In this document: positions 2,731 to 64,000 of the stretch, one piece after another
How the letters are laid out: every line of letters begins with the position of its first letter
How positions within the stretch are numbered: the first letter of the stretch is position 1
DNA from: a virus
Reading direction: 5' to 3' (one strand)
Virus record (IMG/VR): IMGVR_UViG_3300008448_000014
Coordinates: 49,910-113,909 of that record
DNA: 64,000 nt
Translations under genes and position numbers: made by a program
The notes under the pieces: generated by a model
What the model was told of the DNA's origin: nothing
Database searches by the model: none
What the model saw: the letters and a program-made list of their open reading frames with translations, nothing else

Positions 2731-2761
2731 GTGTTCTATGTTTAATTTGTGATTAAGTGTT

Positions 2762-2796
2762 AAAAAATCCCTACACACTTGAGACATGTGTAGGGA
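2762..2796 (-). terminator. Rho-independent terminator (likely 3' end of the putative ncRNA)
   Basis: 10-bp stem TCCCTACACA/TGTGTAGGGA followed by 6 U on the minus strand. Confidence 0.8.
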
Positions 2797-3395: not shown

Positions 3396-3749
3396 TTATT
3401 CTTCTAACAAAGCAGCTTGTTTTCTTAAGAAATCTAGCTTAGCATTGTGTAATTCAAGAGCTTCTTCAGCATCAACTAATTTGTTTTGAGCTAATAATAA
3501 ATTAGAAATATAATAATTTCTATCAGTGATTAAATTACCATTGTTTAATCTAGCAAGTCTTAATGACTCTTTTGCTTCTTCTACAGCATCTTCTAAAGAT
3601 ATAGTATCTCCTGTTAATGATGCAATTTGTGTTTTGAAAGCTGAATCAGCTTGTCTTAAGATTTTTTGTGCTGTTGCTTCTGCATCATCTCCTTTAAGTA
3701 AACAAACAATTTCTGTTACAAATGATTTTACAATTTTTTTAGTTGTCAT
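3396..3749 (-). CDS. Coiled-coil hypothetical protein
   Basis: 117-aa helical, heptad-rich ORF directly upstream of the putative ncRNA. Confidence 0.75.
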   Translation of the reverse strand: MTTKKIVKSFVTEIVCLLKGDDAEATAQKILRQADSAFKTQIASLTGDTISLEDAVEEAKESLRLARLNNGNLITDRNYYISNLLLAQNKLVDAEEALELHNAKLDFLRKQAALLEE

Positions 3750-11672: not shown

Positions 11673-12004
11673 TGGCAGTAAAGAAGAATACATATGTATC
11701 AGCTGAGTTAGATTGGGCAGAACAACAGCTTTCTTCTTGGAAAGAATATGTTGATGCTAATCCTTTACATTTGTTAAAAGATAGGATAGAGTGGAAACCT
11801 ACAGCTAAGGGAGGAATGCTTCCAATGGTTATAGCTTCTATTGAAAGTCAAGGTAAATTTGTACAAGAGACAATGAAGAACTATTTAGCTCTTCTTGAAC
11901 AAGTTGATAAGCTACGTGAAAAAGAAGAAGCTAAAACAGTACCTGTAAGAGGAGATGTACAACTTGGAAGTATGGCTGAAGATTTCTTAAAAAGAAGAAC
12001 ATAA
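11672..12004 (+). CDS. Probable terminase small subunit
   Basis: Small helical protein coupled (TAATG) to the large terminase; positional inference. Confidence 0.5.
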   Translation: MAVKKNTYVSAELDWAEQQLSSWKEYVDANPLHLLKDRIEWKPTAKGGMLPMVIASIESQGKFVQETMKNYLALLEQVDKLREKEEAKTVPVRGDVQLGSMAEDFLKRRT

Positions 12005-18009: not shown

Positions 18010-19566
18010 ATGAGTAGTATTCAAACTATCCCTGGATTAACAGGGTTTACCTACGCCAGAGTGGCTTCTATGGATAAGCGTGCTGTAGGTAAACTTACAG
18101 ATTCCAATCACTTAGAGAGTTTTCACTCTACTGAGCCTGCTGACTATGACAAGAAAATCATCAGTTTGTACACACAAAGTTCATTATATAGTAATGACTT
18201 TTTAGACATGATTAACAAAAGCACACCTTATTACATTGATAATAATAGTGATGCTTGGAAATGGCAAATTGCTGTTCCTTACAAATTTCCAAAAATCATT
18301 GACATTCCTGCGTCAACACAAGCTTTACAAAAGCCAGGTATTGATGGACAAGAATTTCAATTAGTATTAGATACTAATGAATTTTCTAAAAATGCAATTG
18401 TTTCTGTAGGTACACGTCAATATGGTCCACGTTTTTATGTAATTAAAGATCCACAACCATGGAACATGGGATTCTTATACACATTTACATTGGTAACTGA
18501 CAATCCAACAGTTGATTTTGTAACTTCTACATTTTTACAAGTTGGTATTGAATTAGAATTGGTTGATGCTGCTATTGGTGAATTTGACCAAGATTTATTA
18601 GGGCTTCCTAGATTAGGGGAGCAAATCACTATGTTTGAATCATTAGGTTCAGGATATGGATATGAACACAAAATTACAGAATGGGCTGATGACAAAATGA
18701 TGAGAGATGCTTCTGGTAAGCCACTTGATATTTTAGTATATGCTCCACAAAGACGTAACCAATTACCTTTAACTCGTAATGATGTTAAATGGGAGCCATT
18801 TGTTGAATTCTGGATGCGTAAATCTATGTTAGAATTAAAAGTTAAACGTATGATCTGGGCTAAACCAGGTACAGTTAAAACTGGAGGTTCTCAACAAAAT
18901 GTTAAACGTACTTCTGCAGGTGTATACCACAGAATGAGAAACAATGGAAACTTAGTTCAATATAACAGAGGTGAATTCTCTGCTAACTTATTACGTTCAG
19001 TATTTGGAGATTTATTCTACAGAAGAGTGGATGTAAAAGACAGAGCAGTTAAAATGTACACTAATGAAGCTGGTTTTGACGTATTCCAACAAGCTTTGAA
19101 AAATGATGCATTAAACTCTGGTCTTACATTTATGGCAGATTCTGGTAACAGATACTTACAAGGTGAAGGACAACACATTACATATAACTTTGCATTTGAT
19201 GCAATGGTTACACGTGAGACAGGTCGTATTGAATTAATTCACTTGAAAGAATTAGATTTACCACAAACTAACTTAGAGTTTGGACAAAACAAAAAATCTA
19301 CTCCAGTATTTATGGTGTTTGATGTTTCTCCAATGTCTGATGGTTCAATGGTGAATAACATTAGAGAAGTACGTATGAAAGGTGCTCCTTCTATGACTTG
19401 GGGTTATATTGATGGTACAAGACACCACTTAGGTTTTGCTAAATCTCAAGGAATGTCTTCTGCTAACAAATTCCCAGGATACGAAATCTGGATGAAAGAC
19501 AGATGTGATGTATTCATTGAAGACTTATCAAGAACTGTTCTTATAGAAGAGATACCACAGTTTTAA
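18010..19566 (+). CDS. Major capsid protein (crAss-like)
   Basis: 518 aa, highly biased codon usage, conserved position, crAss-type segments (MYTNEAGF..F, MTWGYIDG). Confidence 0.88.
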   Translation: MSSIQTIPGLTGFTYARVASMDKRAVGKLTDSNHLESFHSTEPADYDKKIISLYTQSSLYSNDFLDMINKSTPYYIDNNSDAWKWQIAVPYKFPKIIDIPASTQALQKPGIDGQEFQLVLDTNEFSKNAIVSVGTRQYGPRFYVIKDPQPWNMGFLYTFTLVTDNPTVDFVTSTFLQVGIELELVDAAIGEFDQDLLGLPRLGEQITMFESLGSGYGYEHKITEWADDKMMRDASGKPLDILVYAPQRRNQLPLTRNDVKWEPFVEFWMRKSMLELKVKRMIWAKPGTVKTGGSQQNVKRTSAGVYHRMRNNGNLVQYNRGEFSANLLRSVFGDLFYRRVDVKDRAVKMYTNEAGFDVFQQALKNDALNSGLTFMADSGNRYLQGEGQHITYNFAFDAMVTRETGRIELIHLKELDLPQTNLEFGQNKKSTPVFMVFDVSPMSDGSMVNNIREVRMKGAPSMTWGYIDGTRHHLGFAKSQGMSSANKFPGYEIWMKDRCDVFIEDLSRTVLIEEIPQF

Positions 19567-48096: not shown

Positions 48097-51000
48097 ATGC
48101 CAATTTTTGATAATGAACTTTTAAATAATAATTCTGATAGAAACTATGATACTGGTATTGATAGACCTTTAGGTTCTGCAGATATAGGAGAAGTAAATGT
48201 AAACTTAGATATGTCAACAGGTGCATCTTCTGGATTTGGTGTAGCATTTAAAGATTTAGCAAAGTTGGGACAAGCTCCAACTTCTACAGGATTTGATGCT
48301 CCTTTTCAGATGGTTCCTAGAAGTGAGCTGATGGCTAATCAACGTTACCCATTATATGAGAGGGGTCTTGATCTTGAAAACGTATATGGACTACAACAAT
48401 CAGGACTTGCACAATTAGGAAATGGGTTAGTTAAAATGGGGGCATTTGCATTAGGTACATTTGGACAATCATTTGCTACAATTCCTAATACATTTTCTGC
48501 TATTAAAAATGGAAGTTTATCAGATTTATCAAATCCTGATGGATATGAAGCTTCTATAGATGATTGGATGAAAAATGTAGAAGACTACTTTCCAAATTAT
48601 GTAACAAATTATGAAAGATCAAGAGGACTTGCTACAGCTATTCCTTTTACATATGGATCAGCTAACTTCTGGGGAGATAAAATTTTAAAGAACTCAGGGT
48701 TTATGGTGGGTGCAATTGCAGGTGCAGTTGCTCAAGATTTTGCTATTGGTGCTGTTACAGAAGGAGTGGGTGCAGTTCCATTAGTTGCTGTTCAATTAGG
48801 AAAAGCTTCTTTATATTTAAATAAATTATTTTCAGGTGCTAATAAAGTTGATAGAGTGCTAGATCTTGCTAGAGCTACTGGTAAATCTGAACAAACATTA
48901 TTGAACATTGAAAGACTTGGACAACTTGCTGCTGCTACAAAATTAAATAATGGATTTAGATATGGAATGTCTATATATGGTTCTGCAAGAACAGAAGCAG
49001 CTATTGAATCAAGAGAATCTTATAGAACAATAAAAGAAGAACTTACAGAACAATATAAGTTAGATAACTTTGGTGATGAACCTACACCAGAAGCAATTCA
49101 ACAAATAGAAGAATATGCTACAGATGCAATGAATGCTAGATTTGGTATTAACATGGCATTACTCACTGTTTCCAACGCTGTACAGTTTGGTAATTTATTT
49201 AAATCATTTACAGGAGCACAAAAAGGTGTTACATCTTCTTCATTAAATGAATTTGGATCTGCTGGTAAAATAGGACTTAAAGAAGGAACACTTGATACAT
49301 TTGAAAAGAAACTTCCTCAAACATTTTCTGGTAAAGCTTGGGAGTTTGCAAAACCAAAAGCAATTAATATATTTACAGAAGGTGTTTACGAAGAAGGTGG
49401 ACAGTTTGCTGCACAAAAAGGTGTAGAAGATTATTACACAAGAAAATACAAAACAGGAAAAGAAAGTTGGGATTTTGTAAAAGAAGCAATGTATTCTACA
49501 AACAAAGGTTTGTCAGAACAGTTTGGTTCTTCTGAAGGTATAGAAAGCATGGTGATTGGTGCTATTACAGCTGCTATTACTGGACCTGTTGTAGATAGAA
49601 TTACAGGCAAATCAAAAGCAGATAATCAAAGACTTAATAGTACACTTAACATATTAAATCAATATGGAATGACAGGTGTGCTTTCTGATAAGTATGAAAA
49701 TACATCAAGAAGTGTTGAGATAGCAAAACAGATGAATGAAGCTGTTAATTCTGGAAACATCTTTAAATTTAAAAATTTAAAAGCTGACATGTTCTTTGGA
49801 TTTGTAAACTCTCGTATTCCTATAGGAATGCATGATGTTACAATTGAACAATTACAAATGTTGAAAGATCTTCCTAAGGCAGAATTTGAAAAAACATTTG
49901 GAATGGATTTTAATAGTTCAAATCAGTCTACTGTTAGTGGATATGTTGATGCATTAATAACAAAAGCTAATAACATTAATGATATAACAACATCTTTAAA
50001 TTCTACATTTAACAATCCTTATAATAGAATTATAGATCCTAAAACAGTAGAAGAAAAAAATGAAGGTAGAAAATATACAATGTTTGAGAGCTGGAAAACA
50101 GATCTTGCACATCTATCTTACATTCAACAAGATTCTAATCAAAGAATTACAGACATACAAACATCTATATCACAAGTAAATCCTCTTCTTACAAATAATC
50201 TTTTAACATTAGCTTCTAGTGAAAAAGGATTAAAAGAGTTAAGTAATTCTTATGAGCAAAAAGCAAATATGTTAAGTGAATCTCTTGCTAATCTTTCTCC
50301 TGTTGAGAGAACATCTAAACGTGAAGAGATTAAAAAACTTAGAACGCTATCTGAAAAAATAAGCATTTCTTTAAATTCTAATAAAATTGATGATCCAAAA
50401 TTATTTAATGAGTTAATTAATTTTGAATTAAACAATCAAGATTTTTCTCAATCAAATGCTTTAAGAATTGATGAAACTTCAAATCTTGCAACATATGCTG
50501 AAGACTTAAATAAAATAATAGATAGAAGAGAAAAAGCTGCTACACAGTTTGAAGATCTTTCTACAGAGAAAGGATTTGATAAATATTTTGCACAGGAAGA
50601 AGAAATTCAGAAAGAGAAAGAAGAAGAAGGACAACAATCATTATTTCCTCAAGATGAAAAGTTTGGATTTTTAAATAAATCTGGTAAAAAAGAAACAGCA
50701 GAAGTTGGTAGAGAATATCAGATTCCTAATATGTCTCCTGCTAAAGTCAGAAAAACAGGTGAACAATTTAAAGTGACATCACCTACAGGTGAAGTTAAAT
50801 ACTATGATACTAGAGAAGAAGCTAAGCAAGCTGCTGATGATCTTAATGTAGATTTTTCAGAACTAACCACTGTAAAAGTGATAGCTTTAAATGAAGATGG
50901 TACAATTAAAGTGGAAGACTTAGCTGGCAATATTCAAAACATTAATCTATCTACACTAAAAGGGTATGAAAGATTACAAACAGAAGAAGAAAAACTAGCA

Positions 51001-54000
51001 AAGGATAAAGAAACTCTTGATAGAGAATTAGAACAATTAGCACCTACAGGAGGATCTGTACAATCTATTTCTCCTACACCAGGAGAGTTTATTGGTACAG
51101 ATAATAAAGCTAAAGATGTTGATATAGTGTTCTTAGCTACAACATCTCCTTCTGAAGATACAGGAGGTGCTGAAACTAATAATCTTCCTCATATAAAAAG
51201 AGCTAGAACATTTTTAAATAATTTTAAATTCTTTAAGAATAGAAATAAAATAAAAACAATTATTGTCACTCCTAGTAATGTAAATGAATTAGGGTTAGAA
51301 GGACTTATACAACTTTCTTATAATAAAAACATAACTGATGAATTAACAGAAGATGAAACTAATGTTGAAACAGGGTTTATGGCTCAAGTGTTTATTATAC
51401 AAACACCTGAAGGGAACTTCTTTGTTAATGATAAAGGAGAGAAGTTAAATAAAATAGGAGAATCATCATCTACAATACTTGATAATGTTGTATTTCAAAC
51501 AATGACTTCTGCTAGTTTAGTTACAGAAGGAGGGTATACAAAAATTAGAAAAGGACAAGAAGAACAAGCTGATATAGCATTAGAAGCATATAAAATATTT
51601 AGACAAGAGCTGTTTGGACAAACTGGTTATACACCTTATCCATTTGCTATATCAAGAGGTATACCAAATCAAAATGTAGTTAATGGTGTATATGAAGACA
51701 ATCACATGTCTGATATACTTGGACCAAATGCAGAAAGAATAATAGCTGAACATAATGGATTGATTGAAGTTGTTACTACTGGTCAAGTAGAAAACAATGG
51801 AGAACTATTATCTTTTCCTGTAGGAACAACATTAATTAGATTTGGGGATTTGTTAGACTTTGCAAATAATAAAGTGTTAACTAACAAACAAGCTAATAAT
51901 GTATTCCATGTAATAAATGCAATGGCTAAAGATTTAATTGCTAAATCTAGTACAGCTAAAGCAGGTAAACCTGATTATGGATATATTACATTCTTAAAGA
52001 ATGTTTTATATTTTAAATTTAAAGGAAACCCAACTACTCCTAGTCAAATAAGTATTGACACTACAACAATGAATTTTAGAATAGGAAATAAATCTTTTCC
52101 TTTTTCTGAAATTGAAACTAGAAAACAAGAATTAATGGATGCTTTACAAGAAGCATTTATTAGTGTTAACAATAAAACCCTAACTGACTTAGGAACATCT
52201 AAAGAGTTTACAGAGTATGTAGCTGATAAAGATGGAAACTTAACAAAAGTTGTATGGGCAAATTATCAATCATTTTTATTATCTAGTAAAAATCCTGATG
52301 GTTCTACAAGATCTGTAGGAGAAACTCCTTTGATTACACATACATCTAAACCAACAGAAAATACAAATTCATATAAGCAAAAGTATTCCTATATAACAGA
52401 TACAGATATACTACCATATGATAGAGTTCCTGTTAAAGAAGTTAAACCAACTCCTACACAATCTCCAAATAAAATTGGAGAATATGAAGTTAATACATCT
52501 ACTGCTCAAACATTTCCTATTAACTCAGGACCAATATTGTTTACAGCAACATTATCTCCTGAAGGAGAAATTGCTGTCACTGTACAAAGCAATCAAACAA
52601 TCTCTGATCTTTCTACAGACCCTATAAAGATTAAAACTATTGATAGCTCATTAAAAGCAAATTTATCTCCTGAAGAAATTCAAGAATTTGATAAAAAATC
52701 AAATGAAGATAAAGCTAAATTGTTTATTGGAGCAGCAATAACACAATCATTAAACAAAACATTAGCAGAACAACAAACTACTCCTGCAGTAGAAGAAGTT
52801 GTACAACCAATGGCTCCACCAGAAGTTGTAGCTCAACAAGATATAGAAGCTAAGAAAGCTGATATAGAAAAAAGAAGACAAGAAGAATTAATATCTGCTG
52901 TAACTACTCTTATATCTTATGAAGATTTTACAAAAACTAAACCTAAAGAAGTTATAGTTAATAATTTTGATGTATATCAATATGATAAATATTTAAAAAA
53001 GTATGTATTAGTTGGTGCAGTTTCTTCAACAGATACAAGCTTAGAAAGTATTGCAGCAAGAGAAGAAGGAGCTAAAGATGTAGACTTTTTTAAAGATAAG
53101 TCTTTAAAGCTTGATACAGTAAGCTTTTTTTGGGCTGAGAGAACAACTGGAAGAAGTCCAATTACTAGATTAACTAACTATAAACAACGTACAAAACAAG
53201 GAAGAATAGATGAAAGAGTTGGTCAATTATTGGTAGATATCAATGCTAAATATGATGTAGAACTAGCTGCTTTAGAAGAAACTAAACCTGTAGAAGATGC
53301 CCCATATGATCCTTCTAAGAAAAAAAGAAGAGGGGAAGCTCCTGAGTTTAGAATGGTAGGAGCAGCAGATGTTTCTGATAGAATGACTGATGCTGATTTT
53401 GAAGCATTCAAACAATGGCATGCAGAAAAAGTTCCTTTCATTCCTTTTGAAGATCTTGAAAGAATGGTTAATGTGAATGACACTGAAGAAGCTTGGGGTG
53501 TATTTGAAAATGGTATAGCTAAGTTTGTAAGAGGTGGATTAAGAGGTACAGAGTATCATGAAATTGGTCATGGTATATGGACTATGTTGTCTACTGCAGA
53601 ACAAGAAGCTTTATTAAATGAATTTAGATCTAAACCTGGTACATTTACAGATAGAGCGTCTGGTAAGAAGATAGAGCATATAGATGCTACAGATACTCAA
53701 GCTGAAGAAAGAATATGGGATGACTTCTCTGATTTTAGACTTGGTAAACTTCCAGCTAGATCATTAGGAGAAAGAATTCGTAGATTATTTAAAATGGTTA
53801 TGGACTTCTTTAAATCATTTGGAAGTAAACCATCATTGAAAAATGAATTGTTTGAAGCAATTGAAGCTGGTAGATTTAAAGAAACAAAACTATCAGAAAG
53901 AGCTAAGACCATGGCTCCTAAATATAGAGCAATAGAAGGATTAACAGAAGAGCAAACTAACAACTATATCAATGATATGGTATTTCAAGTTAGTCGTATT

Positions 54001-57000
54001 ATATTTAGAGAAGGAAATAAAGATGCTTTATTTAATCCTGAACAATTGACAGGTGAACAAGTATTTAATCAAGTTAGAGAGAACTATGAAGAGCTTGGTG
54101 AAATAGATGCATTAGGAGAAAAGAGATATAATGAACTTGTTAAGAGAACTATTAATTCAATAAGAACAAGAGGTATATCATTTAACGCTGATGAGGTGGT
54201 AACTATAAATGATGAAAATGCTAATTCAAGAGATTATGCTCCAGAAGCTTTTTCTGTAGACTGGAAAAAACATTCTACAGGAGCTCTTAAGTTTTTACTA
54301 TCTACATTAGCAGAAAGAAAAGCATTAAATCAAACTAATGTTGAAAAATTAACACCATTAAAACCTGCTGCATATAATTTATCTAATGAAGGATTTAAAA
54401 TATTAAACTTTAATAGAGTGTTTGCTACATTGTTAGATAGACTACATAATACAAACAGTCCTGAAGAGTTTACTAAAAAGTTTATACAATTAGCAAAAGA
54501 AGATTCAAACTATCTTGCTTTGTTTGTATCATTAGGAGGTAATACAGTTACACATGAATTTGATTTTCCTAACTTTGGAGAGTCAGACTGGAAACTATTT
54601 ATACAATTTTTTAATACATTCTCTAGACAAAAACCAGAAGCATTAATTCAATATACCTCTGAAGAAGGAGATATATACACAGGCCCTGCAAATCTATTCA
54701 CAACAGTTAAACAAACTACTGAAGGATGGATTGATAACATGCGTACTATTGGTAAAGGTGAAGGTGGATTAATTAATTACGATAAAGCTAATAAAGTATA
54801 TAAAATAAACACTGTAAAAATTAAAGATTTATCTGTTAAAAAATCTACAGATCAAATTAAATTTTTAAATGAATTAGGTATAGAATTTAATCAAGGTACT
54901 TATAATGCTCTTAGTAATAAAGAAGCTATTATAAAAGGAGAAACAACTACAGAGGTAAAAGAATTTAATAAAGCTGTATCTAAAATATATACACAACTAG
55001 GAAAGAATAATGACTTAATGACATTTGATGCTAAAAGACTAGCTATTAATGGACCATTAAGAACATTAGCTGAATTATATACAAGAGTTAATAATCCTAA
55101 TCAAGATTCTACATATTTTGGTGTAGAGGGGCAACGCATTGGTTCATTCTCTGAAAACAATGCTCCTTCTTATTTTGAGAATACATTTAATGAGTCTAAC
55201 ACATTAACAGAGCTTTTAGAAAAAATGCCTCAATTAAATGATGTATATTCTAGAGGAAGTGAAATATTAAAACCAGGAGGATTATTTTTTGATAAAGATG
55301 GTAATAGAATAGCTGAACTTAAAGTTGGATATATACAAGGAAGTAAAAATCAATTAGATGGTACAGCAAAAACTACATCTAGATTATCTAGAGGACAAAG
55401 ATTTGTACAAGAAATAAATCAAAATATAAATGGTAATTACTATGTACTTATTCCTGGGGATAGTTCTACAGAGTGGATGATGAACTTAGGAAATGTCATT
55501 TCAATGGATGATGTATTAGATGGTAAGCATTGGGATAAAGTATATAGTATATATAACAACTATTTAAATGATGAAATTAATTTAGCATTATCAGATAGAA
55601 CACAAAACATTTATCAAAGAGCTAAGTCTAAAGAACTTAGAATAATGAAAGATGTACTTCCAGAAAAAATTGTTGAGAAAATAGAATCAATGATTGATAA
55701 TGGAAAAACTTACGATGCTATACAAGAATACATTTCTGATAATAGAACAGATATAAATTCTTCTATAAAAGATTTTATTGATGATATGTCAAAAGAAACA
55801 ATTGATATATTATTAAACTCTAGCCAAATTATAATGGTTGGAGAAAATGAATATGTTATTAATAAGTTTGATACAGAATTCTTAAAAAAATATAATTTAA
55901 ATGATAAAATAACTTTTGATGAGTTAATGAATGTTATAAACTTTGTTAACATTAATTATCAAATAAACAATCAAGAATATCACAAAGTATTATTTGGAGA
56001 TCCTTATCAGTTTAAAACTGCTAAAGGAAAACTAGATGAAACAAAACGTATTAAATCTTTCTTATCTCCTAGAAGAAGAACATTTAATATGACAGAATAT
56101 AATAACTTTTTAAATGATCAATATAACTCTATAGATGGTATTGAACTAGAAGAAGGTGTTCCAGGAAGTCATAAGTATAAATCATATACTAATACTGTAA
56201 CACTTAACACTGTAGAGATTGTTGGTAGTATTGCAACACTTCCTAATGTTCCTGAAAATATAAAAAGTACATTTGCTAAAACAGATGAAACAGATGCAAT
56301 GTCTTGGTTGATGGATAATACACATAAAGAAATTGCTCTTAAAGAAGGACAATGGACAGAACAAGCTGAGGCATTTCATCAATGGCATATGGCTTACACT
56401 AGAAGAGCATTTGATAAAAAAGGGATTAAAGCATACACAAGTGAACAATTAAAAGCAAAAGATGCTAAATTGTTAGAATCTCCTATACCTAAACATAAAC
56501 TTGCTGTAAGAAAACCTATTGTATCTGGTAACAAGTTTAACAAAACAGAAATAGATCTTGTATTAGATAAAACATCTCAGATTCCTTTATATTACAACAT
56601 GGTTGAAGGTACTAATTTAGAGAACATGTATATTCAAATGTTTAATCAAAACATTGGATATAGTATTGTTACAACTGGTAGAAAAGTAGGAGCTGAAGGA
56701 TTACATAATATATATAATAGTGATGGTACATTTAATACAGAACAATTTAATAATGTAATAGAAGTTCCTTGGATAGCGTATGGTACACAAGTGGAAACTA
56801 TGTCTGAAGGAGATAAAACCCAAACAAGAGGTTCTCAACTTACAAAATTAGCTAGCTCTGATTTATATAAAAATGGAGAAGCTATTACTGAAGAAGGTAA
56901 ACAAGCATATGAAAGAAACAATAAAGCATTAGATATGCTTAATGAGAATGCATATAATGAATTATTAAATAAGCTTGGTGTTGTAGATCTTGGAAATACA

Positions 57001-60000
57001 TATGCTCTTGAGAACAAACAAATAATATCAGAAACTCTTATGTATGAAATGATGCGTAGAGACCTTTCTGAAAATGCTATTGATACAATTCAATTAAATG
57101 AAAATGGTGAGTTTATTATGCCATTTGAAGCTTCTCCTTCTTATACACAAATAAAAAACATTCTTTATTCTATGGTGAATAAAGCATTAATTTCTCCTTC
57201 AATGAGTGGTGCTCCACATGTACAGGTTCCTGTAACAATGTTTGAAAAAGCTACAGAAGGAAGAAGTTTTGCTAGAAAAACTGATACAGGTTGGGAGAAG
57301 ATTTCTAAAGCTCAATATAAAGCTCTTACAGAAGAAGAAAAGAAATCTGTTATGCTTACAGATGATACACTTAAATTTTATGAGAATAAAGATGGCAAAC
57401 GCTATTGTGAAGTGATGCTTCCTCATTGGTTTAAGAATAAGTTTGGAGATATGACAGATAAAGAAATATTATCTTACTTAAATACTTCTGAAGGCCAAAA
57501 AATATTAACTGGTATAGGATTTAGAATACCAACACAATCTCTCTCTTCTATAGAAGTATTTAGAGTTAAAGGATTTCTTCCACAGTATATGGGATATACA
57601 GTTGTTGTTCCTTCTGAAATAACTACTAAAGCTGGATCTGACTTTGATATTGATAAATTAAACATGTATCTTAAATCTATATACACTGATAGAAATGGAA
57701 ATGTTAAATTAGTTAAATGGCAAGGAACAGAACAAGCTACAAAAGATTTCTTTGCAAAGGTATATGATGAATCAACAGAAAGAAAAGCTTTAAAGAAAGC
57801 AGAGCTTATAGAAGCTATTGATATATTAGTATATGGACTAGAAGACACTAAAGGATTATTAAACAAATATGGAGAGTATATTCTTTCTATACAAGATAAA
57901 TACGAAGATCCTTTTATGTTTAGAGCTGAAATGGAAAAAGAATTAGATAGATTAAATGATGCTAATCTAAATGCTGAACTAAGACAATCTTACATAAATA
58001 CAATGTATAAGAAATCTCTTGAGAATGAATACTATGATTCATTAGAAGAACTTCTTACACTTGAAGAAAACTTCAATAAACTTATTAGTCCTGTAGATGA
58101 TGCTGGTCTTGAAAAAATGTCTGAAGTATTAGATAGTGCTAGAGGATATAATGAATCTAGTGTTAAAGGAAGACTTATTAATAGAAATTACATGACTAAT
58201 TTACGTCATGCATTTATTACTGGTAAAAGATGGGTTGGTATTGCTGCTGTTAATATTACAAATCTTTCATTGAGACAGAAAAGTAAAGTGTATTTAAACC
58301 CTGCTAAACTTTCTTCTTTATCTGCACAAGAACGTAAGTTTGTACAAGACTTATCAATTGTTCTTCCACATAATAAAGTGAATATTGAGGGACAACAATA
58401 TGTTTCTTTATCTGGAACAAAAACTTCTGATGATAGTCAATTTATTTCAGAAAGATTATCTGGGTATGCTACAGCATTTGTGGATATTGCAAACAAACCT
58501 TTTATTACTAAGATTATAAAGAGTGATATAGTAGTTTCTACATTTATGTTTTTAGAATCTATAGGTGCTGGTAATTCAGGAATATATTTCTTAAATCAAC
58601 CTATTATAGAAAAGTATTTAGAATACTTAGATGGTATAGGATCAAAAAGTGTTATGGGAAAAGATAATCTTGCTTATATAAGAAACATGTTCCCTACAAC
58701 AGAAAAAGCAATAGAAGATGCTAGTATATCTGTAGAAGGATTATTAGATAATATAAAAGAATATTCTGAAAAAGGTGAGTTTTATAGTAACGCTAAATAT
58801 GCTGAACAACAATTAATATTGAATGAGTTTATTAAATACAAAATATTAGCAGATCAGTTATTTAGTTATACACAAGCTACAAACTATGATACAACAAAGT
58901 TTGGCAGTTCAGATTTATATTTCAAAAAACAATTAGGAACAATTGCTGCAAGTAATTTTAATTTGATTTCTAATGTTGATGATGTATTAAAAAATACATT
59001 TATAGGAAAGCAATCTGAGTTATTAGGAAAATCATTCAATGCTTTTGGAGCAATAATGAAAACAGAAGATCCTAAAATAAAAGCATACATGATTGATACT
59101 CTTAAGAAATATGCTTCAAGAAAATACATGTCTGCAGATGATTATATGAAGATTGCTAATTTGATTAACAATTCTTTTATAGATTACATTATACAGAACG
59201 ATAGAACTTATTACAATTTGATTAAGCCAGACCTTGTAGATTCTGCAACAGCTGTTGTAACTAAACTAGAACAAGCTAAACAAAAATATCCTTCTATAAA
59301 ACTATTACAAGACCTTGTTCCTGTACTTAGTAATAGAGAAGATGGAGCTAAATCTATTCAATTGAAAGCAAACGTCAAAGATGCATATAGTGAAAACTTA
59401 TATGTAGGAATGATGAGAGAGTTAAGAGATATTAATCCAGAACTTAATAGTCTATATAATAATATTATTAATGTTGCTATATTACAAGGAACTGCACAAT
59501 CAGCTATATCTTTAAGAAATATTATTCCTGTAGAAGATTATGCTGCTAAGATTACTCCTATTATAAATAATCTTCAACCAAACATAAACTTAGAATCTTT
59601 TTCTAATGGAATGTTTGAAAGAAATAATTTTAATAACAAAGATGTATTTATGGATTATACTCCTTTTGCTAATCCTTCACAAAGAGAAGCAGATGAAATA
59701 CTTAATCCTAATACAGGAGAAACTGAAATATTATATTATATACCAGCATTTAAACAAACAAAAGGTTCACAAAAAGGATTGCTAGTTTTAAATGATAAAT
59801 ACAATTCATTTCAATTAAGCTCTGATTTTATTAAAGTTCCTAAAGTTATAACAGCTAGAGATGGAAGTAAAGTTAATATAGCTACAAGAAGTGAAGTTAC
59901 AGCTAGAGATTATGCATTAATGAAACAAAAAGGTTCACAAGATCTTTATGATGCATACTATTATAAAAAAGTGTATACAACTAATATGGATGAGTTTGGC

Positions 60001-60897
60001 AATCTTCTCCCATTAGTAGTTCCTACTATTGATAAAAAAACAGGAGATGTTCTATATAACTATTATTATAAACAAGTTAATGTATATGGAGATGGTAATA
60101 GAGCTGTAGAATTTAATACAAACTTCACACCTTCTGTTATTGATAATGGTTCTATAACAATTCAAGAAGAACTATCAGACAGTGAAATAGTAAATCAATT
60201 TACTCCACAGATTGCAGAAGAAGTTGTATCTTTACCAATTAAACCAAGTATGCCTAGCAAACCAGCTATTATATCTGAAACAACTGTGACTCAACCTACA
60301 CAACCATTGACTGGAGAAAAAATTAATATCTATGCAGGTACAGGAGAGAATGCTGAGTTAAGTAATTTTGCTGACAGACCTTTTATAGATACAGATGGAG
60401 CAATAGGTTTTGGGTATTCAGAAGTTACAGGTAAGGATATTACTTTTAAAACAGTTGAAGGATATTTTCAAGCTACTAAACTTATATATACAGATGCTTC
60501 TGAATATTGGACAAAAGAAAATACATTAACAGAGCAGGGAATAAAACTTGTAGAACAGTTTGCTAATGCTACTGGAGCACAGGCTAAGTCTTTAGGCAGA
60601 ACTGTAAAAGAATTAAATAAGAAAGATTGGGATGATATTTCTTCTGCTGTAATGAGTGATGGTTTAAGAATGTCTTTTGAACAAAATCCAAATGCTCTTG
60701 CTAAGTTATTAGCTACAGGTAACTCAGAATTAACGCATACACAAGATAAAGGTAAATGGGGCAAAGAGTTTCCAAGATTACTTATGGAAGTAAGAGAAGA
60801 ACTTAGACCTGCGCAAATAGGAGAACAATTAGATTTGTTTACAGAAGAAGACTTAGGTCTTAATACAGATTTTAACCAAGATGATTTTAAATGTTAA
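48097..60897 (+). CDS. Giant virion-packaged two-barrel RNA polymerase polyprotein (N-terminal hydrophobic helices, zincin motif, RNAP core, C-terminal NADAR)
   Basis: 4266 aa; GFRIPTQ...AGSDFDIDK (DFDID at 57640-54), the crAss-like vRNAP catalytic loop; HEIGH at 53557-71; NADAR motifs at ~60319-60807. Confidence 0.9.
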   Translation: MPIFDNELLNNNSDRNYDTGIDRPLGSADIGEVNVNLDMSTGASSGFGVAFKDLAKLGQAPTSTGFDAPFQMVPRSELMANQRYPLYERGLDLENVYGLQQSGLAQLGNGLVKMGAFALGTFGQSFATIPNTFSAIKNGSLSDLSNPDGYEASIDDWMKNVEDYFPNYVTNYERSRGLATAIPFTYGSANFWGDKILKNSGFMVGAIAGAVAQDFAIGAVTEGVGAVPLVAVQLGKASLYLNKLFSGANKVDRVLDLARATGKSEQTLLNIERLGQLAAATKLNNGFRYGMSIYGSARTEAAIESRESYRTIKEELTEQYKLDNFGDEPTPEAIQQIEEYATDAMNARFGINMALLTVSNAVQFGNLFKSFTGAQKGVTSSSLNEFGSAGKIGLKEGTLDTFEKKLPQTFSGKAWEFAKPKAINIFTEGVYEEGGQFAAQKGVEDYYTRKYKTGKESWDFVKEAMYSTNKGLSEQFGSSEGIESMVIGAITAAITGPVVDRITGKSKADNQRLNSTLNILNQYGMTGVLSDKYENTSRSVEIAKQMNEAVNSGNIFKFKNLKADMFFGFVNSRIPIGMHDVTIEQLQMLKDLPKAEFEKTFGMDFNSSNQSTVSGYVDALITKANNINDITTSLNSTFNNPYNRIIDPKTVEEKNEGRKYTMFESWKTDLAHLSYIQQDSNQRITDIQTSISQVNPLLTNNLLTLASSEKGLKELSNSYEQKANMLSESLANLSPVERTSKREEIKKLRTLSEKISISLNSNKIDDPKLFNELINFELNNQDFSQSNALRIDETSNLATYAEDLNKIIDRREKAATQFEDLSTEKGFDKYFAQEEEIQKEKEEEGQQSLFPQDEKFGFLNKSGKKETAEVGREYQIPNMSPAKVRKTGEQFKVTSPTGEVKYYDTREEAKQAADDLNVDFSELTTVKVIALNEDGTIKVEDLAGNIQNINLSTLKGYERLQTEEEKLAKDKETLDRELEQLAPTGGSVQSISPTPGEFIGTDNKAKDVDIVFLATTSPSEDTGGAETNNLPHIKRARTFLNNFKFFKNRNKIKTIIVTPSNVNELGLEGLIQLSYNKNITDELTEDETNVETGFMAQVFIIQTPEGNFFVNDKGEKLNKIGESSSTILDNVVFQTMTSASLVTEGGYTKIRKGQEEQADIALEAYKIFRQELFGQTGYTPYPFAISRGIPNQNVVNGVYEDNHMSDILGPNAERIIAEHNGLIEVVTTGQVENNGELLSFPVGTTLIRFGDLLDFANNKVLTNKQANNVFHVINAMAKDLIAKSSTAKAGKPDYGYITFLKNVLYFKFKGNPTTPSQISIDTTTMNFRIGNKSFPFSEIETRKQELMDALQEAFISVNNKTLTDLGTSKEFTEYVADKDGNLTKVVWANYQSFLLSSKNPDGSTRSVGETPLITHTSKPTENTNSYKQKYSYITDTDILPYDRVPVKEVKPTPTQSPNKIGEYEVNTSTAQTFPINSGPILFTATLSPEGEIAVTVQSNQTISDLSTDPIKIKTIDSSLKANLSPEEIQEFDKKSNEDKAKLFIGAAITQSLNKTLAEQQTTPAVEEVVQPMAPPEVVAQQDIEAKKADIEKRRQEELISAVTTLISYEDFTKTKPKEVIVNNFDVYQYDKYLKKYVLVGAVSSTDTSLESIAAREEGAKDVDFFKDKSLKLDTVSFFWAERTTGRSPITRLTNYKQRTKQGRIDERVGQLLVDINAKYDVELAALEETKPVEDAPYDPSKKKRRGEAPEFRMVGAADVSDRMTDADFEAFKQWHAEKVPFIPFEDLERMVNVNDTEEAWGVFENGIAKFVRGGLRGTEYHEIGHGIWTMLSTAEQEALLNEFRSKPGTFTDRASGKKIEHIDATDTQAEERIWDDFSDFRLGKLPARSLGERIRRLFKMVMDFFKSFGSKPSLKNELFEAIEAGRFKETKLSERAKTMAPKYRAIEGLTEEQTNNYINDMVFQVSRIIFREGNKDALFNPEQLTGEQVFNQVRENYEELGEIDALGEKRYNELVKRTINSIRTRGISFNADEVVTINDENANSRDYAPEAFSVDWKKHSTGALKFLLSTLAERKALNQTNVEKLTPLKPAAYNLSNEGFKILNFNRVFATLLDRLHNTNSPEEFTKKFIQLAKEDSNYLALFVSLGGNTVTHEFDFPNFGESDWKLFIQFFNTFSRQKPEALIQYTSEEGDIYTGPANLFTTVKQTTEGWIDNMRTIGKGEGGLINYDKANKVYKINTVKIKDLSVKKSTDQIKFLNELGIEFNQGTYNALSNKEAIIKGETTTEVKEFNKAVSKIYTQLGKNNDLMTFDAKRLAINGPLRTLAELYTRVNNPNQDSTYFGVEGQRIGSFSENNAPSYFENTFNESNTLTELLEKMPQLNDVYSRGSEILKPGGLFFDKDGNRIAELKVGYIQGSKNQLDGTAKTTSRLSRGQRFVQEINQNINGNYYVLIPGDSSTEWMMNLGNVISMDDVLDGKHWDKVYSIYNNYLNDEINLALSDRTQNIYQRAKSKELRIMKDVLPEKIVEKIESMIDNGKTYDAIQEYISDNRTDINSSIKDFIDDMSKETIDILLNSSQIIMVGENEYVINKFDTEFLKKYNLNDKITFDELMNVINFVNINYQINNQEYHKVLFGDPYQFKTAKGKLDETKRIKSFLSPRRRTFNMTEYNNFLNDQYNSIDGIELEEGVPGSHKYKSYTNTVTLNTVEIVGSIATLPNVPENIKSTFAKTDETDAMSWLMDNTHKEIALKEGQWTEQAEAFHQWHMAYTRRAFDKKGIKAYTSEQLKAKDAKLLESPIPKHKLAVRKPIVSGNKFNKTEIDLVLDKTSQIPLYYNMVEGTNLENMYIQMFNQNIGYSIVTTGRKVGAEGLHNIYNSDGTFNTEQFNNVIEVPWIAYGTQVETMSEGDKTQTRGSQLTKLASSDLYKNGEAITEEGKQAYERNNKALDMLNENAYNELLNKLGVVDLGNTYALENKQIISETLMYEMMRRDLSENAIDTIQLNENGEFIMPFEASPSYTQIKNILYSMVNKALISPSMSGAPHVQVPVTMFEKATEGRSFARKTDTGWEKISKAQYKALTEEEKKSVMLTDDTLKFYENKDGKRYCEVMLPHWFKNKFGDMTDKEILSYLNTSEGQKILTGIGFRIPTQSLSSIEVFRVKGFLPQYMGYTVVVPSEITTKAGSDFDIDKLNMYLKSIYTDRNGNVKLVKWQGTEQATKDFFAKVYDESTERKALKKAELIEAIDILVYGLEDTKGLLNKYGEYILSIQDKYEDPFMFRAEMEKELDRLNDANLNAELRQSYINTMYKKSLENEYYDSLEELLTLEENFNKLISPVDDAGLEKMSEVLDSARGYNESSVKGRLINRNYMTNLRHAFITGKRWVGIAAVNITNLSLRQKSKVYLNPAKLSSLSAQERKFVQDLSIVLPHNKVNIEGQQYVSLSGTKTSDDSQFISERLSGYATAFVDIANKPFITKIIKSDIVVSTFMFLESIGAGNSGIYFLNQPIIEKYLEYLDGIGSKSVMGKDNLAYIRNMFPTTEKAIEDASISVEGLLDNIKEYSEKGEFYSNAKYAEQQLILNEFIKYKILADQLFSYTQATNYDTTKFGSSDLYFKKQLGTIAASNFNLISNVDDVLKNTFIGKQSELLGKSFNAFGAIMKTEDPKIKAYMIDTLKKYASRKYMSADDYMKIANLINNSFIDYIIQNDRTYYNLIKPDLVDSATAVVTKLEQAKQKYPSIKLLQDLVPVLSNREDGAKSIQLKANVKDAYSENLYVGMMRELRDINPELNSLYNNIINVAILQGTAQSAISLRNIIPVEDYAAKITPIINNLQPNINLESFSNGMFERNNFNNKDVFMDYTPFANPSQREADEILNPNTGETEILYYIPAFKQTKGSQKGLLVLNDKYNSFQLSSDFIKVPKVITARDGSKVNIATRSEVTARDYALMKQKGSQDLYDAYYYKKVYTTNMDEFGNLLPLVVPTIDKKTGDVLYNYYYKQVNVYGDGNRAVEFNTNFTPSVIDNGSITIQEELSDSEIVNQFTPQIAEEVVSLPIKPSMPSKPAIISETTVTQPTQPLTGEKINIYAGTGENAELSNFADRPFIDTDGAIGFGYSEVTGKDITFKTVEGYFQATKLIYTDASEYWTKENTLTEQGIKLVEQFANATGAQAKSLGRTVKELNKKDWDDISSAVMSDGLRMSFEQNPNALAKLLATGNSELTHTQDKGKWGKEFPRLLMEVREELRPAQIGEQLDLFTEEDLGLNTDFNQDDFKC

Positions 60898-60916: not shown

Positions 60917-63900
60917 ATGAGTTGTGATTTAGGTATACAAAGAATAACAAAAAAGGTTTTAAATAATAAGCCTTGGTTTGAATATCAAGAAGGGGATAAA
61001 TATATTCGTATAATAGATTCTCCTAGTGGAAAAATTAATCAAAGCAACTATAAAGGTGTAGCGGATACAACAGCTAGTGCTATTAATAAAGCAATAAACA
61101 AAGGTTATAAGAATATAGGAGATATTGCTTATTCTATATTTTTAAATGGAAAAGGTGTTGTTGAATTAAATCCTTCTAAAAAACAATTAGATTTATTAAA
61201 TGCTCAAAGAGAAGAAGAAATAGCAGAAATACAACAAGAAGTAGATGAAGAAAATCAAATAAAGGAATTTGATAAACTTAATCAAGAAGCTAATATAAAT
61301 ATTGAAGAAGGTGAAGTTTCACCTATGTTACAGTTACAGAAAGAAGGACAAAAAGCTGCTTCTCCAAAACTAATTAAATTAATGAAAGAATTCATTAAGC
61401 AAATTGGTGTTGATTACAAACTAGTTGAAAATATTGTTGTAAATGGAAAGAAGCAAGATGCTAATGGTGTAGCTCTCATAATGCAGAAACTTATTCAAGT
61501 GGTAGAAGGACAAGAAGATGTTGCTCTACCAGAAGAAGCTATGCACTTTGCTGTAGAGATTATAAAACAAACCAATCCTAAATTATACCAACAGCTTCTT
61601 AAAGAAATCAATGATCATTCCAAATTGAATGAAGTGATTGCTTTATATGGAGATCATCCATTATATCAAAAAGATGGTAGACGTGACATAGTTAAACTTA
61701 AAGAAGAAGCTATTGCTCAAGTGTTAGCAGATAGAATGGAAGATGTTGTTGCAAGAACTTGGTGGCAAAAAATTCTTGATTGGTTAACTCCTAGATTTTT
61801 AAAAGCTGGATTTGACAAAGCTTCTATGGATGTATTGGCAGGTAGACTAGCTAGTGTAGAAGACATTGATGTTTCTAAAGGAAGTGCTTATTTCCAATTA
61901 CAAAAAGGAGAACAAGTGTTCAATGATTTATTAGAAACTTCTAAAAGAATAGAAACAAAAGATGGTGGATATGAATTAGATGGAATAAAATCTGTACGAA
62001 GAGTTTCTGATTTTGCAAAAGAGTTTTACGAAAGAATATTTCCACAGATAGGCAAGACAGCATTTGAAGATGCTGTAAATACATTAAAGGCAGAAAAAGG
62101 AACTGCAGGGCATGCTGATATTGAACATGCTTTAAAGGTGCTTGTAGATCCAGAAACAGGGTTATTGAGAGATCAAATGTTAGATGATGAAGATTATGTT
62201 TCAGAACTTAATTCTAATGATAGAAGAATGTATGAGATACTTAGAGATAATCTAAAAGAACGTTTATTATCATTTAATGAAGGTAATAATAAAGGAACTA
62301 GATTTATGTCTGAGGTAAAGATATTTGATAAGAAAAGAAAAATAGCTGGAACTGTAGATTTTATTGCTGTCACTCCTGAAGGTAAAGTGACCATACTTGA
62401 CTGGAAGTTTATGGATCTTGATACAGATAAGTATGAAGACATTCCTTGGTATAAAGTGGAAGCTTGGAGAATACAGATGGGTAAATACAAAGACATTGTA
62501 GCTACTAATTATAATGTAAAGAGTCAAGACTTTGATCAAACAAGAATGATTCCTATATTAGCTAAGTATACAAAAGCTGATTTTGAAAAAGAAATTCTTC
62601 CTAGACTTTTAGAAATAAGAATAGGAAGTACGAATGTTCAGAACATCCAAGAAGATTACTTACTTCCTTTAGGAACTATGGATGAAAAGACAGGAAATAA
62701 AAAAATTGATAAGTTGATAGAAAAGTTCAATGCTACATATAGAAAACTTGCCGAAGAAAAAGTTAATGAAAATGAAAGAGGAAGTAAAGCTGAACAACTA
62801 AATTCTTTATATAAAGCTATTAGACATTTACAGATTAAAGGAAACATTGTTCCATTAATTAATCAGGCTAAAATATTGAACAAGCAAGTATCAATGTTGT
62901 TAAAAAGATATAAAACTGACTTTGAAGGTAAAGAACCTTCTGAAGTAGATAGTGATAAAATAAATGCATTTGCAGGAATGATTAGAGTGCATCTTGAAGC
63001 ATTACAACCTTACTTAGATCTTAAACAACTAGGAACATTGCTTACTGATGAAACAGAGGAAAATGATAAATTAAAGATAGAACTTAGTCTTACTAGAGAT
63101 AAAGTTGAAGATTTTATATCTGAACTTGTAGACTTAGATGAAACTTTTGGAGAAAAGTTTAATAATACTAGTAGTACACCAGAAAAAGTTGTAAAAGGTA
63201 TTAGTAAATGGTTTTCTAGTATTTCTACAATACAGGTTGCAAATATTCAAACATTATATAAACTTGCAAATAAAGCATTTGCTTTAGCTAATATAGAAAC
63301 TACTGAACAAGTAAAAAGATTAGAAAATCTAAAAGATGAATATCAAACATGGGCATCTTCTAAAGGTTTAAATGTTGGTAATTATTTTAATATTCTTATG
63401 AAAAAAGATAAGAATGAATTAATTGACCAATACTCTAATGAGTTTTATGATGAGTTAAAGAAAAGAATAGCTAAAAAAGATTATAATTGGATACTTAATA
63501 ATGTTAATCAAGATTTGTACAGAGCACATTTAGAAGAATTAACTGAAAAAGAAATACAAGAAATATTATCAAGGCCAAGAGTTGGTACAGAAGAAGACGT
63601 AAAGGCTTCTATAAAGAAAGATATGGCTAAGATTTATAATAAATATGATCTTACTACTAAAACTTCTAATGGTTGGTTAATATATAAACAAGTTAAACTA
63701 TTTCCAATAATAGATAAATGGGAGTCTGCAGAATGGAAAGAACTTAATAAACCAGAGAATGCTCCAGCTAAAAAATTCTATGATTATATAGTAGAAAGAA
63801 ATAAATATTTTCAATCAGTAGGATATTTAAATGGTAAAGCTGCTAAAAGATTTCTTCCTTGGATAAGACAAGGATTTACAGAAGGTCTTATATTTGATGG

Positions 63901-64000
63901 TAAATCAAGAGGACTTGGAGAACAATTTCTTAGAAATATATCAATGGATGAGAATGAAGCTGGATATGGACAAACAAATCCTATTACAGGTGAATTAATT
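60917..64000 (+). CDS. Giant virion cargo protein (partial) with degenerate zincin and PD-(D/E)XK nuclease domain
   Basis: Starts MSCDLG and appears open to the window end; PEEAMHF...EEAI; GTAGH...SEVKI...AGTVD...ILDWK...Q...Y. Confidence 0.8.
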   Translation, partial: MSCDLGIQRITKKVLNNKPWFEYQEGDKYIRIIDSPSGKINQSNYKGVADTTASAINKAINKGYKNIGDIAYSIFLNGKGVVELNPSKKQLDLLNAQREEEIAEIQQEVDEENQIKEFDKLNQEANINIEEGEVSPMLQLQKEGQKAASPKLIKLMKEFIKQIGVDYKLVENIVVNGKKQDANGVALIMQKLIQVVEGQEDVALPEEAMHFAVEIIKQTNPKLYQQLLKEINDHSKLNEVIALYGDHPLYQKDGRRDIVKLKEEAIAQVLADRMEDVVARTWWQKILDWLTPRFLKAGFDKASMDVLAGRLASVEDIDVSKGSAYFQLQKGEQVFNDLLETSKRIETKDGGYELDGIKSVRRVSDFAKEFYERIFPQIGKTAFEDAVNTLKAEKGTAGHADIEHALKVLVDPETGLLRDQMLDDEDYVSELNSNDRRMYEILRDNLKERLLSFNEGNNKGTRFMSEVKIFDKKRKIAGTVDFIAVTPEGKVTILDWKFMDLDTDKYEDIPWYKVEAWRIQMGKYKDIVATNYNVKSQDFDQTRMIPILAKYTKADFEKEILPRLLEIRIGSTNVQNIQEDYLLPLGTMDEKTGNKKIDKLIEKFNATYRKLAEEKVNENERGSKAEQLNSLYKAIRHLQIKGNIVPLINQAKILNKQVSMLLKRYKTDFEGKEPSEVDSDKINAFAGMIRVHLEALQPYLDLKQLGTLLTDETEENDKLKIELSLTRDKVEDFISELVDLDETFGEKFNNTSSTPEKVVKGISKWFSSISTIQVANIQTLYKLANKAFALANIETTEQVKRLENLKDEYQTWASSKGLNVGNYFNILMKKDKNELIDQYSNEFYDELKKRIAKKDYNWILNNVNQDLYRAHLEELTEKEIQEILSRPRVGTEEDVKASIKKDMAKIYNKYDLTTKTSNGWLIYKQVKLFPIIDKWESAEWKELNKPENAPAKKFYDYIVERNKYFQSVGYLNGKAAKRFLPWIRQGFTEGLIFDGKSRGLGEQFLRNISMDENEAGYGQTNPITGELI

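Follow-up and report, generated by a model that had tools for sequence, protein, structure and literature searches.

A crAss-type virion RNA polymerase (vRNAP) encoded by an environmental crAss-like phage carries, close to its C terminus, a NADAR-family domain with conserved catalytic residues, and this domain sits in an in-frame cassette that is under purifying selection and recurs in giant metagenomic proteins. The DNA analyzed here, referred to below as the window, is the right-hand 64 kb (64,000 nucleotides) of the IMG/VR virus record IMGVR_UViG_3300008448_000014, a complete record of 113,909 bp with direct terminal repeats, and the polymerase is encoded in it by an open reading frame (ORF) of 4,266 amino acids (aa) (Table 1). 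When these observations are read alongside what has been reported for related phages, it can be hypothesized, with a little more confidence than doubt, that the cassette-borne NADAR, of the type with a catalytic-site His, is injected together with the polymerase and removes from phage nucleic acid the ADP-ribose (ADPr) attached by a host ADP-ribosyltransferase (ART).

A NADAR domain within a virion RNA polymerase

The original prediction, which was made by reading the window alone, held that a virion RNA polymerase ends in a fused NADAR domain and that the fusion is possibly an injected anti-ADP-ribosylation enzyme. The polymerase part of this claim is confirmed by homology of the two-barrel core to phi14:2 gp66 (6VR4) and by a catalytic DFDxD motif, with GSDFDIDK of the window paired residue for residue with GSDFDIDK of 6VR4 by phmmer; together these features assign the protein to the gp66 family of crAss-type vRNAPs. 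The ORF lies on the same strand as the genes for TerL, portal, and MCP and downstream of all three, and it is thus encoded with the late, virion genes.

The NADAR motif series that had been read behind a Pro/Thr linker is present exactly as described, and the region to which it had been assigned (60319-60807, aa 4075-4237) is the NADAR domain, for which we set limits of about aa 4073 to 4238. The match to Pfam NADAR (PF08719) scores 59.8 bits against a curated gathering cutoff of 35.1 (E 5e-16), and a profile built from 28 orthologous cassettes matches Escherichia coli YbiA (2B3W) over its full length (E 3e-14) and PnNADAR (8BAU; E 1.8e-10). Structure prediction agrees with the sequence comparison. 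The AlphaFold2 (AF2) model of the domain has a mean predicted local distance difference test (pLDDT) of 90.6 and a predicted template modeling score (pTM) of 0.88, and it has the core of alpha helices with small beta sheets at its sides that is typical of the NADAR fold. Foldseek gave just two significant matches (E <= 0.001), 2B3W and 8BAU, followed by the third solved NADAR, 8BAT, at E 0.086. VIA-align superimposes the model on ADPr-bound PnNADAR (8BAU) with a Z of 16.1 and a root mean square deviation of 2.3 A over 145 aa, on YbiA (2B3W) with a Z of 13.4, and on the Geobacter lovleyi NADAR (DarG1, 8BAT) with a Z of 8.7, the best non-NADAR structure reaching a Z of 2.6. The predicted placement at the polymerase C terminus holds for the C-terminal part of the protein but not for its very end, since a conserved 25-aa peptide follows the domain.

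Catalytic residues

Hydrolysis of guanine-ADPr by PnNADAR requires E43, K50, and E125, which correspond to E88, K95, and D171 of E. coli C7 NADAR, and phage NADARs have a His at the position of PnNADAR E125 (PMC11543638). The catalytic residues have been found to be required in E. coli C7 NADAR and in T4 AdfN (PMC11543638, PMC11825919). In the window, the Glu and Lys of VEGYFQATK, seven residues apart, are invariant in the 28 cassettes, which share 43-79% identity, and the third position is occupied by His4214. The segment L-T-His4214-T aligns with V-L-K-His-S of T4 gp30.3, and in the alignment with YbiA the column of the conserved Glu holds a gap or the Thr beside His4214. The whole motif LTHTQDKGKW is invariant in the 28-cassette alignment, an invariance that is in part an ascertainment effect because the peptide served as one of the scan patterns. 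AKSLGR supplies the equivalents of PnNADAR K75, G78, and R79, and Trp4178 that of W89. Inspection of the catalytic residues, which had been proposed as a check on the prediction, thus finds the Glu/Lys pair kept and the third residue changed to His in place of Glu or Asp, as it is in T4 AdfN. On the evidence of these alignments, the domain is a phage His-type NADAR of the kind described for AdfN.

An exchangeable cassette in an accessory slot

The in-frame cassette of 585 nucleotides (nt) that contains the NADAR domain stands in place of 24 nt in two NADAR-less relatives (L052 and L053), in which the flanking DNA, the entire terminal peptide included, is ~95-100% identical to that of the window. 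NADAR is likewise missing from P0122, which has the highest core identity of all relatives (98%). The most similar NADAR cassette (L006, 79% identity) adjoins a polymerase body only 63% identical to that of the window, whereas the body of L052 is 87% identical and yet has no cassette; because the identities of cassette and body disagree in this way, we conclude that the cassette moves between polymerases. Its GC content is 32-35% (window 60100-60850), compared with 25-29% in the polymerase gene around it and in the gene that follows. The ratio of nonsynonymous to synonymous substitution rates (dN/dS, by the NG86 method, which is rough in a genome of 28% GC) is 0.31-0.50 for the cassette and 0.25-0.41 for the neighboring polymerase body, and the cassette is under purifying selection.

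Beyond the conserved polymerase body, which stops at aa ~4047, come the modules, from none to several, and then the short terminal peptide. Which domains occupy this place in related vRNAPs, a survey that the original prediction had proposed, was examined in the 120 closest polymerase homologues (57-98% core identity, the protein of the window included). The slot is empty in 66 of these (55%), and it holds NADAR in 6, among them that of the window, either alone or behind an AlkB or DprA/SLOG-like module. Elsewhere it contains AlkB (PF13532) or a Pif1/RecD-type helicase, both supported by Pfam, DUF7831 (PF25176, E 9e-37), a coiled coil, or candidate modules below the Pfam cutoff, namely, ASCH-like (E 0.026) and DprA/SLOG-like (E 0.013); cpYpsA (PF12694) is also found in the same slot or protein family. 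Recurring joints bound the modules, with TE(E)V.T.PTQ at the 5' end and (E)QV.QPGEQL.LF at the 3' end, and these directly adjoin each other in cassette-less proteins. The terminal peptide is identical or near-identical in NADAR-less relatives, and a Cys lies within the last 5 residues of 119 of the 120 homologues. The peptide is possibly a signal for packaging, ejection, or anchoring.

Several further observations concern these elements. Terminal peptides (that of the window and the C termini of P0122-P0237) always come last, downstream of any cassette, and form six recurrent classes, ..EIGKILKSIC, ..PEGLPPIDRTPKQC, ..SQEEKNKINEC, ..LGLNTDFNQDDFKC, ..EEDNNDTCVPF, and ..VINKLKDCY. The MPSKPAIIS stretch of the Pro/Ser/Thr-rich linker is similar to the segment with which the AlkB cassette ends in relatives, and the linker may, judging by this likeness, be the scar of a deleted AlkB module. 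The segments concerned are KPSMPSKPAIISETT in the linker before NADAR and PLEPGMPSKPAIIST at the C-terminal end of the AlkB cassette. AlkB and NADAR stand in tandem in one relative (P0009). DUF7831 is a frequent alternative or companion cassette (L061-L111; P0202 aa 3966-4074) with the invariant residues I-Y-x-F-G-D-N, R, N, and G. Its model (pLDDT 95.8) has no Foldseek match, and its best VIA-align rows are mostly macrodomains, the DarG macrodomain among them; "macro-like" is a weak reading of this module because the Z of ~5 is weak by VIA-align's own standard.

Seen as a whole, the C-terminal end of the vRNAP could be a standardized plug-in slot for exchanging prepackaged nucleic-acid "eraser" or processing enzymes, which would be tethered to the polymerase reading the incoming single-stranded template and would act before phage gene expression. 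We advance this wider proposal tentatively and hold it to be somewhat short of probable. It would entail that the 5' joint (TEEV.T.PTQ) and the 3' joint (EQV.QPGEQL.LF) are conserved, that the Cys-ending peptide must stay last, and that the repertoire takes in NADAR, AlkB, the Pif1/RecD helicase, macro-like DUF7831, and the candidate SLOG/DprA-like and ASCH-like modules.

Recurrence and distribution

Within a search limited to proteins of 2,346-7,466 aa, at least 1,327 giant metagenomic proteins carry this type of NADAR, mostly near the C terminus and in some cases at an N-terminal or internal position. The polymerase core is also present in 118 of the 120 best NADAR-bearing giant proteins. 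Among sequenced Crassvirales, giant proteins with NADAR are found in cr126_1 (2,402 aa, annotated as "DUF1768 domain-containing protein"), cr130_1 (5,801 aa), cr131_1, and cr272_1 (6,386 aa). An exhaustive HMMER search of 1.84 billion representatives returned 947 clusters at E <= 1e-3 and 168 at E <= 1e-30; 57 of the 136 newly returned top-hit sequences are at least 2,000 aa long, and many of the shorter ones are probably fragments truncated by contig ends.

Species genomes present a different picture, with this type of NADAR in only six contigs among 185,579 genomes, all of them contigs of metagenome-assembled genomes (MAGs; L046-L051). The six are labeled Dehalococcoidia, Clostridia, Bacilli, Pseudomonadales, Saccharibacteria, and Zoogloea, none of them Bacteroidota, and three are 85-115 kb long, in the range of crAss genomes. 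All six are probably misbinned contigs of crAss-like phages. Because no more than these six MAG contigs matched, the NADAR clade can be regarded as essentially phage borne.

ADP-ribosylating domains are sometimes found in the same polypeptide, ART-PolyVal (PF18760) accompanying NADAR in 8 of the 120 best NADAR-bearing giant proteins. Some giant polymerase proteins hold a PF08719 NADAR plus a separate domain of the T4 gp30.3 type (PF08010), and co-occurrence with PF08010 and ART-PolyVal is listed for P0014, P0085, and P0095. The complete 113.9-kb genome of the phage itself has no match to DarT (PF14487) or ART-PolyVal, in a search that found none in control genomes either and is thus of unproven sensitivity; on this absence, the NADAR of the window is taken to be an orphan.

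Proposed function and alternatives

Studies of related proteins suggest how such a fusion might act. Virions of phi14:2 contain the gp66 polymerase, which is translocated together with the DNA and carries out early gene transcription; in vitro it has a strong preference for single-stranded or denatured DNA over double-stranded DNA (bioRxiv 10.1101/2020.03.07.982082). Mass spectrometry of PhicrAss001 virions identified three RNA polymerase-associated proteins as cargo of the capsid, and these are presumed to leave it in a partly unfolded state (PMC10172136). All NADAR subtypes tested, T4 gp30.3 included, remove guanosine-ADPr from DNA and RNA (PMC11125620, PMC11833690), and some also remove cytidine-ADPr (PMC11833690, PMC12945103). 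DarT1 modifies guanine in single-stranded DNA (PMC11543638). T4 AdfN gives T-even phages protection against DarTG1 but performs poorly beyond this group, and the authors of that work propose that it is localized by a further factor (PMC11825919).

The interpretation that we favor is that the polymerase gained NADAR as a mobile in-frame cassette in the accessory slot at its C-terminal end, and the domain is predicted to be a catalytically competent His-variant NADAR ADP-ribosyl-glycohydrolase. As part of the polymerase chain it would, by analogy with relatives, be packaged inside the capsid and enter the cell along with the polymerase, either before the DNA or at the same time. A host ART (DarT1-like or another guanine- or cytosine-directed enzyme) would modify bases of single-stranded or melted phage DNA, and the NADAR would strip ADPr from the template read by the polymerase, and possibly from nascent early RNA too, before phage gene expression. 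The tether to the polymerase could supply the nucleic-acid localization that free phage NADARs do not have. AlkB, helicase, and macro-like DUF7831 as slot contents fit the idea of an eraser kit for nucleic acids and ADPr. The earlier view of a possibly injected anti-ADP-ribosylation enzyme is supported in part: the fold, the Glu/Lys pair, and the fusion to the C-terminal part of a vRNAP are upheld, the literature on relatives favors packaging and translocation of the polymerase, and the domain is not of the DarG1 type.

A number of points weigh against this proposal. DarT1 as the specific target is its weakest step, because the domain is not DarG1-like, because free T4 gp30.3 and YbiA, which remove guanine-ADPr in vitro, give no rescue from DarT1 toxicity when expressed alone (PMC11125620), and because it presupposes DarTG1 in the likely hosts. 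The same pair of proteins illustrates that in vitro activity of the class is no predictor of the in vivo target. Residues that contact the adenine and proximal ribose in PnNADAR are lost (Y84 to L, D86 to K, and R93 to S), and cassettes differ from one another at the position of R79, the Arg of LGR. The polyprotein might also undergo cleavage before it is packaged. More than half of the surveyed relatives leave the slot empty, and none of the cultured phages in the phage collection has this cassette.

Other substrates can be envisaged for an injected NADAR. It could act on entry on soluble ADPr-derived molecules, such as cyclic-ADPr-type signals of TIR/Thoeris-like systems or by-products of NAD+ consumption or RNA repair, and not on nucleic acids. 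Iyer et al. (2022) regard soluble derivatives of ADPr as the more likely substrates of the NADAR, Macro, and SLOG domains of phages (PMC9503650), and the candidate SLOG/DprA-like module, cpYpsA, and macro-like DUF7831 in the slot or family are members of the network that they propose; the joint presence of SLOG-like and macro-like modules fits such substrates equally well. However, no NADAR is known to cleave such signals, the substrate of every NADAR tested is ADPr linked to a base of DNA or RNA (PMC11125620, PMC11833690, PMC12945103), and a nucleic-acid substrate agrees better with the tether to a DNA-bound polymerase and with the company of AlkB and a DNA helicase, so that we consider a soluble substrate improbable. 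A role in protecting RNA instead of DNA, in which ADPr attached by an RNA-directed ART would be stripped from early transcripts as they are made or from host RNAs required at that stage, seems unlikely to a marginally greater degree. NADARs including T4 gp30.3 do reverse ADP-ribosylation of RNA guanosine (PMC11833690), the tether partner is the enzyme that makes the first phage RNAs, and replicase polyproteins of RNA viruses likewise contain NADAR and Macro domains (PMC9503650). The sole in vivo role shown so far for a phage NADAR is nevertheless directed against the DNA-modifying DarT1 (PMC11825919), NADARs are inactive on ADPr at phosphate ends of RNA (PMC11833690), and the sequence of the domain holds nothing that separates RNA from DNA specificity.

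We see very little prospect that the NADAR serves as antidote to, or regulator of, an ART injected by the phage itself, limiting self-damage to phage DNA or proteins. ART-PolyVal does stand beside NADAR in a few of the giant proteins, but most NADAR-bearing polymerases have no ART, and the complete genome likewise gave no match (with the sensitivity limit noted above). It is just as hard to credit that the domain is a passenger with no enzymatic role, a recent neutral or structural insert in a tolerant linker region. The slot accepts many unrelated inserts, is often empty, and holds a cassette of slightly higher GC content that would fit a recent arrival; against this stand the dN/dS values, the catalytic residues invariant across the divergent cassettes, and the recurrence of the same domain in more than 1,300 giant proteins. 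A metabolic role of the YbiA type, as N-glycosidase of a riboflavin intermediate, was also judged unlikely, given a cassette in a virion polymerase and a phage genome with no ART match.

Genome context

The window contains the structural module of a crAss-type phage on its + strand, with PHROG matches for TerL, portal, and MCP, and downstream of MCP a run of very large ORFs, of which the polymerase ORF is the last. The nearest TerL among sequenced phages is that of Leptolyngbya phage Lbo-JY46 (40% identity), followed by those of Cellulophaga and Flavobacterium phages (~32%), and the polymerase gene has no megablast match in phage records. The GC content of the genome is ~28%. On the grounds of the gp66 match, the TerL neighbors, and the low GC content, the source is an environmental crAss-like phage, and its host is most plausibly a member of the Bacteroidota.

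The next ORF (60917-64000, more than 1,027 aa, extending past the end of the window) has no PHROG match and probably belongs to the same block of giant virion and transcription proteins. A HEIGH motif in the region before the polymerase core was considered as a zincin metallopeptidase site, and this reading was not adopted: 112 of 167 aligned relatives have HExxE there, and the region has no Pfam or PDB match. The His-Glu pair of the site is conserved among polymerase relatives.

Table 1. Coordinates of the polymerase, its NADAR cassette, and other features in the window
Feature	Position in window	Strand	Residues (aa)	Basis or remark
TerL	12004-14025	+		PHROG match
Portal	14025-16613	+		PHROG match
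MCP	18010-19566	+		PHROG match
Giant ORF, crAss-type virion RNA polymerase polyprotein with cassette	48097..60897	+	4,266 in total	ORF list and translation
HEIGH motif, pre-core region	53557-53571	+	1821-1825	Sequence
RNA polymerase core, homologous to phi14:2 gp66	55864..58776	+	2590-3560	phmmer against PDB 6VR4, E 3.2e-17
Catalytic DFDID (DxDxD) motif	57640..57654	+	3182-3186	Aligned to DFDID of 6VR4
In-frame 585-nt cassette (linker, NADAR, and 3' joint)	60235..60819	+		DNA alignment with L052/L053
Pro/Ser/Thr-rich linker IKPSMPSKPAIISETTVTQPTQPLT	60238..60312	+	4048-4072	Sequence
NADAR domain	60313..60810	+	4073-4238	Pfam, profile, AF2, Foldseek, VIA-align
Pfam NADAR match (PF08719)	60349-60765	+	4085-4223	E 5e-16
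VEGYFQATK, with Glu4121 and Lys4128 (PnNADAR E43/K50, T4 AdfN E36/K43)	60457..60480	+		Alignments to 8BAU, YbiA, and T4 gp30.3
LTHTQDKGKW, with His4214 (catalytic Glu/Asp position of other NADARs) and Trp4221 (PnNADAR W133)	60730..60759	+		
Conserved 25-aa terminal peptide GEQLDLFTEEDLGLNTDFNQDDFKC	60820..60894	+		Stays at the C terminus with or without cassette

Novelty and significance

Several parts of this picture are known, namely, counterdefense by orphan phage NADARs, polyvalent virion proteins including fusions to the N4 vRNAP, and the crAss vRNAP itself, and automatic annotations already label such proteins DUF1768/YbiA. In the literature searched, we found no paper that describes or interprets the fusion of NADAR to a vRNAP or the cassette slot, with the qualification that Figure 3 of Yutin et al. 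(2021), on "recognized domains," may depict it. New here are the cassette boundaries at nucleotide level, the incongruence between body and cassette identities, and the conserved Cys-ending terminal peptide.

Known phage antidotes to DNA ADP-ribosylation of the DarT type are made after infection. If the proposed function is correct, an injected polymerase that brings its own antidote would have it at work from the first moment and directly on the template, and the slot would be a readable, modular record of the host defenses that face crAss-like phages, which are dominant in the gut and widespread in aquatic environments. Candidate readings of this record would be NADAR for guanine- or cytosine-ADPr, the macro-like module for thymine-ADPr or other ADPr, and AlkB for alkylation. 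The architecture could also be used to deliver chosen enzymes along with the phage genome in laboratory phage-host systems, and it makes testable whether tethering to a polymerase turns a weakly specific NADAR into an effective counterdefense.

Comparison with known systems

Among the closest known systems is AdfN (T4 gp30.3). Both are phage orphan NADARs with no cognate toxin (PMC11825919, PMC11125620), they agree in the catalytic Glu and Lys and have a His where a Glu is otherwise conserved, and guanine-ADPr glycohydrolase activity and a role against DarTG1 are proven for the AdfN family (PMC11825919, PMC11125620). The two are nevertheless only 24% identical, and the domain of the window has no match to Phage_30_3 (PF08010) at E <= 1. 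AdfN is a free protein of 152 aa, encoded among the T4 early genes and made after infection, whereas the NADAR of the window is part of a protein of the structural module and would be expected to be made beforehand and injected.

DarG1, the DarTG1 antitoxin (BC4488 subfamily, 8BAT), shares with the domain the NADAR fold, the Glu/Lys pair (PMC11543638), and the Lys of AKxLGR, equivalent to K115. It differs in having Asp171 where the window has His, in its basic N-terminal beta-beta-alpha extension that binds single-stranded DNA, which is absent from the window, and in the adjacent DarT1 gene, for which the phage genome has no PF14487 match (in the search of unproven sensitivity). The domain of the window starts at KINIYAG right after the low-complexity linker, and the first 10 residues of its model have a pLDDT of 65. 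Because of the His at the third catalytic position, the lack of the DNA-binding extension, and the lack of a DarT match in the phage genome, we do not class the domain as DarG1 type; structurally it is nearer to the YbiA/PnNADAR type (Z 13-16) than to DarG1.

The polymerase part can be compared with phi14:2 gp66 (6VR4), with which it shares a homologous core, the DFDID motif, and a position at the end of the structural module. With 2,180 aa, gp66 is about half the length of the protein of the window and does not have the NADAR cassette, and a search for NADAR found none in Cellulophaga phages. Replicase polyproteins of positive-strand RNA viruses likewise place an ADPr-removing NADAR or Macro domain in the same polypeptide as the viral polymerase (PMC9503650), but these belong to viruses of eukaryotes and contain an RNA-dependent RNA polymerase translated after entry, as opposed to a prepackaged DNA-dependent phage RNA polymerase.

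Polyvalent proteins, such as those in which the N4 vRNAP is fused to metallopeptidase (MPTase), ART, or lysozyme domains, offer a further analogy, as giant late-gene proteins that join a virion RNA polymerase to unrelated enzymatic effector domains, the rationale being coinjection at the very start of infection (Iyer et al. 2017, PMC5512222). The ORF of the window conforms to this description in uniting disparate activities, a two-barrel polymerase core and a NADAR, in a single chain of 4,266 aa, and that paper mentions neither NADAR nor crAss-type two-barrel RNA polymerases. What sets the protein of the window apart from these polyvalent proteins is a gp66/QDE-1-like RNA polymerase whose effectors all sit in a single defined slot, in which the joints and the terminal peptide are conserved.

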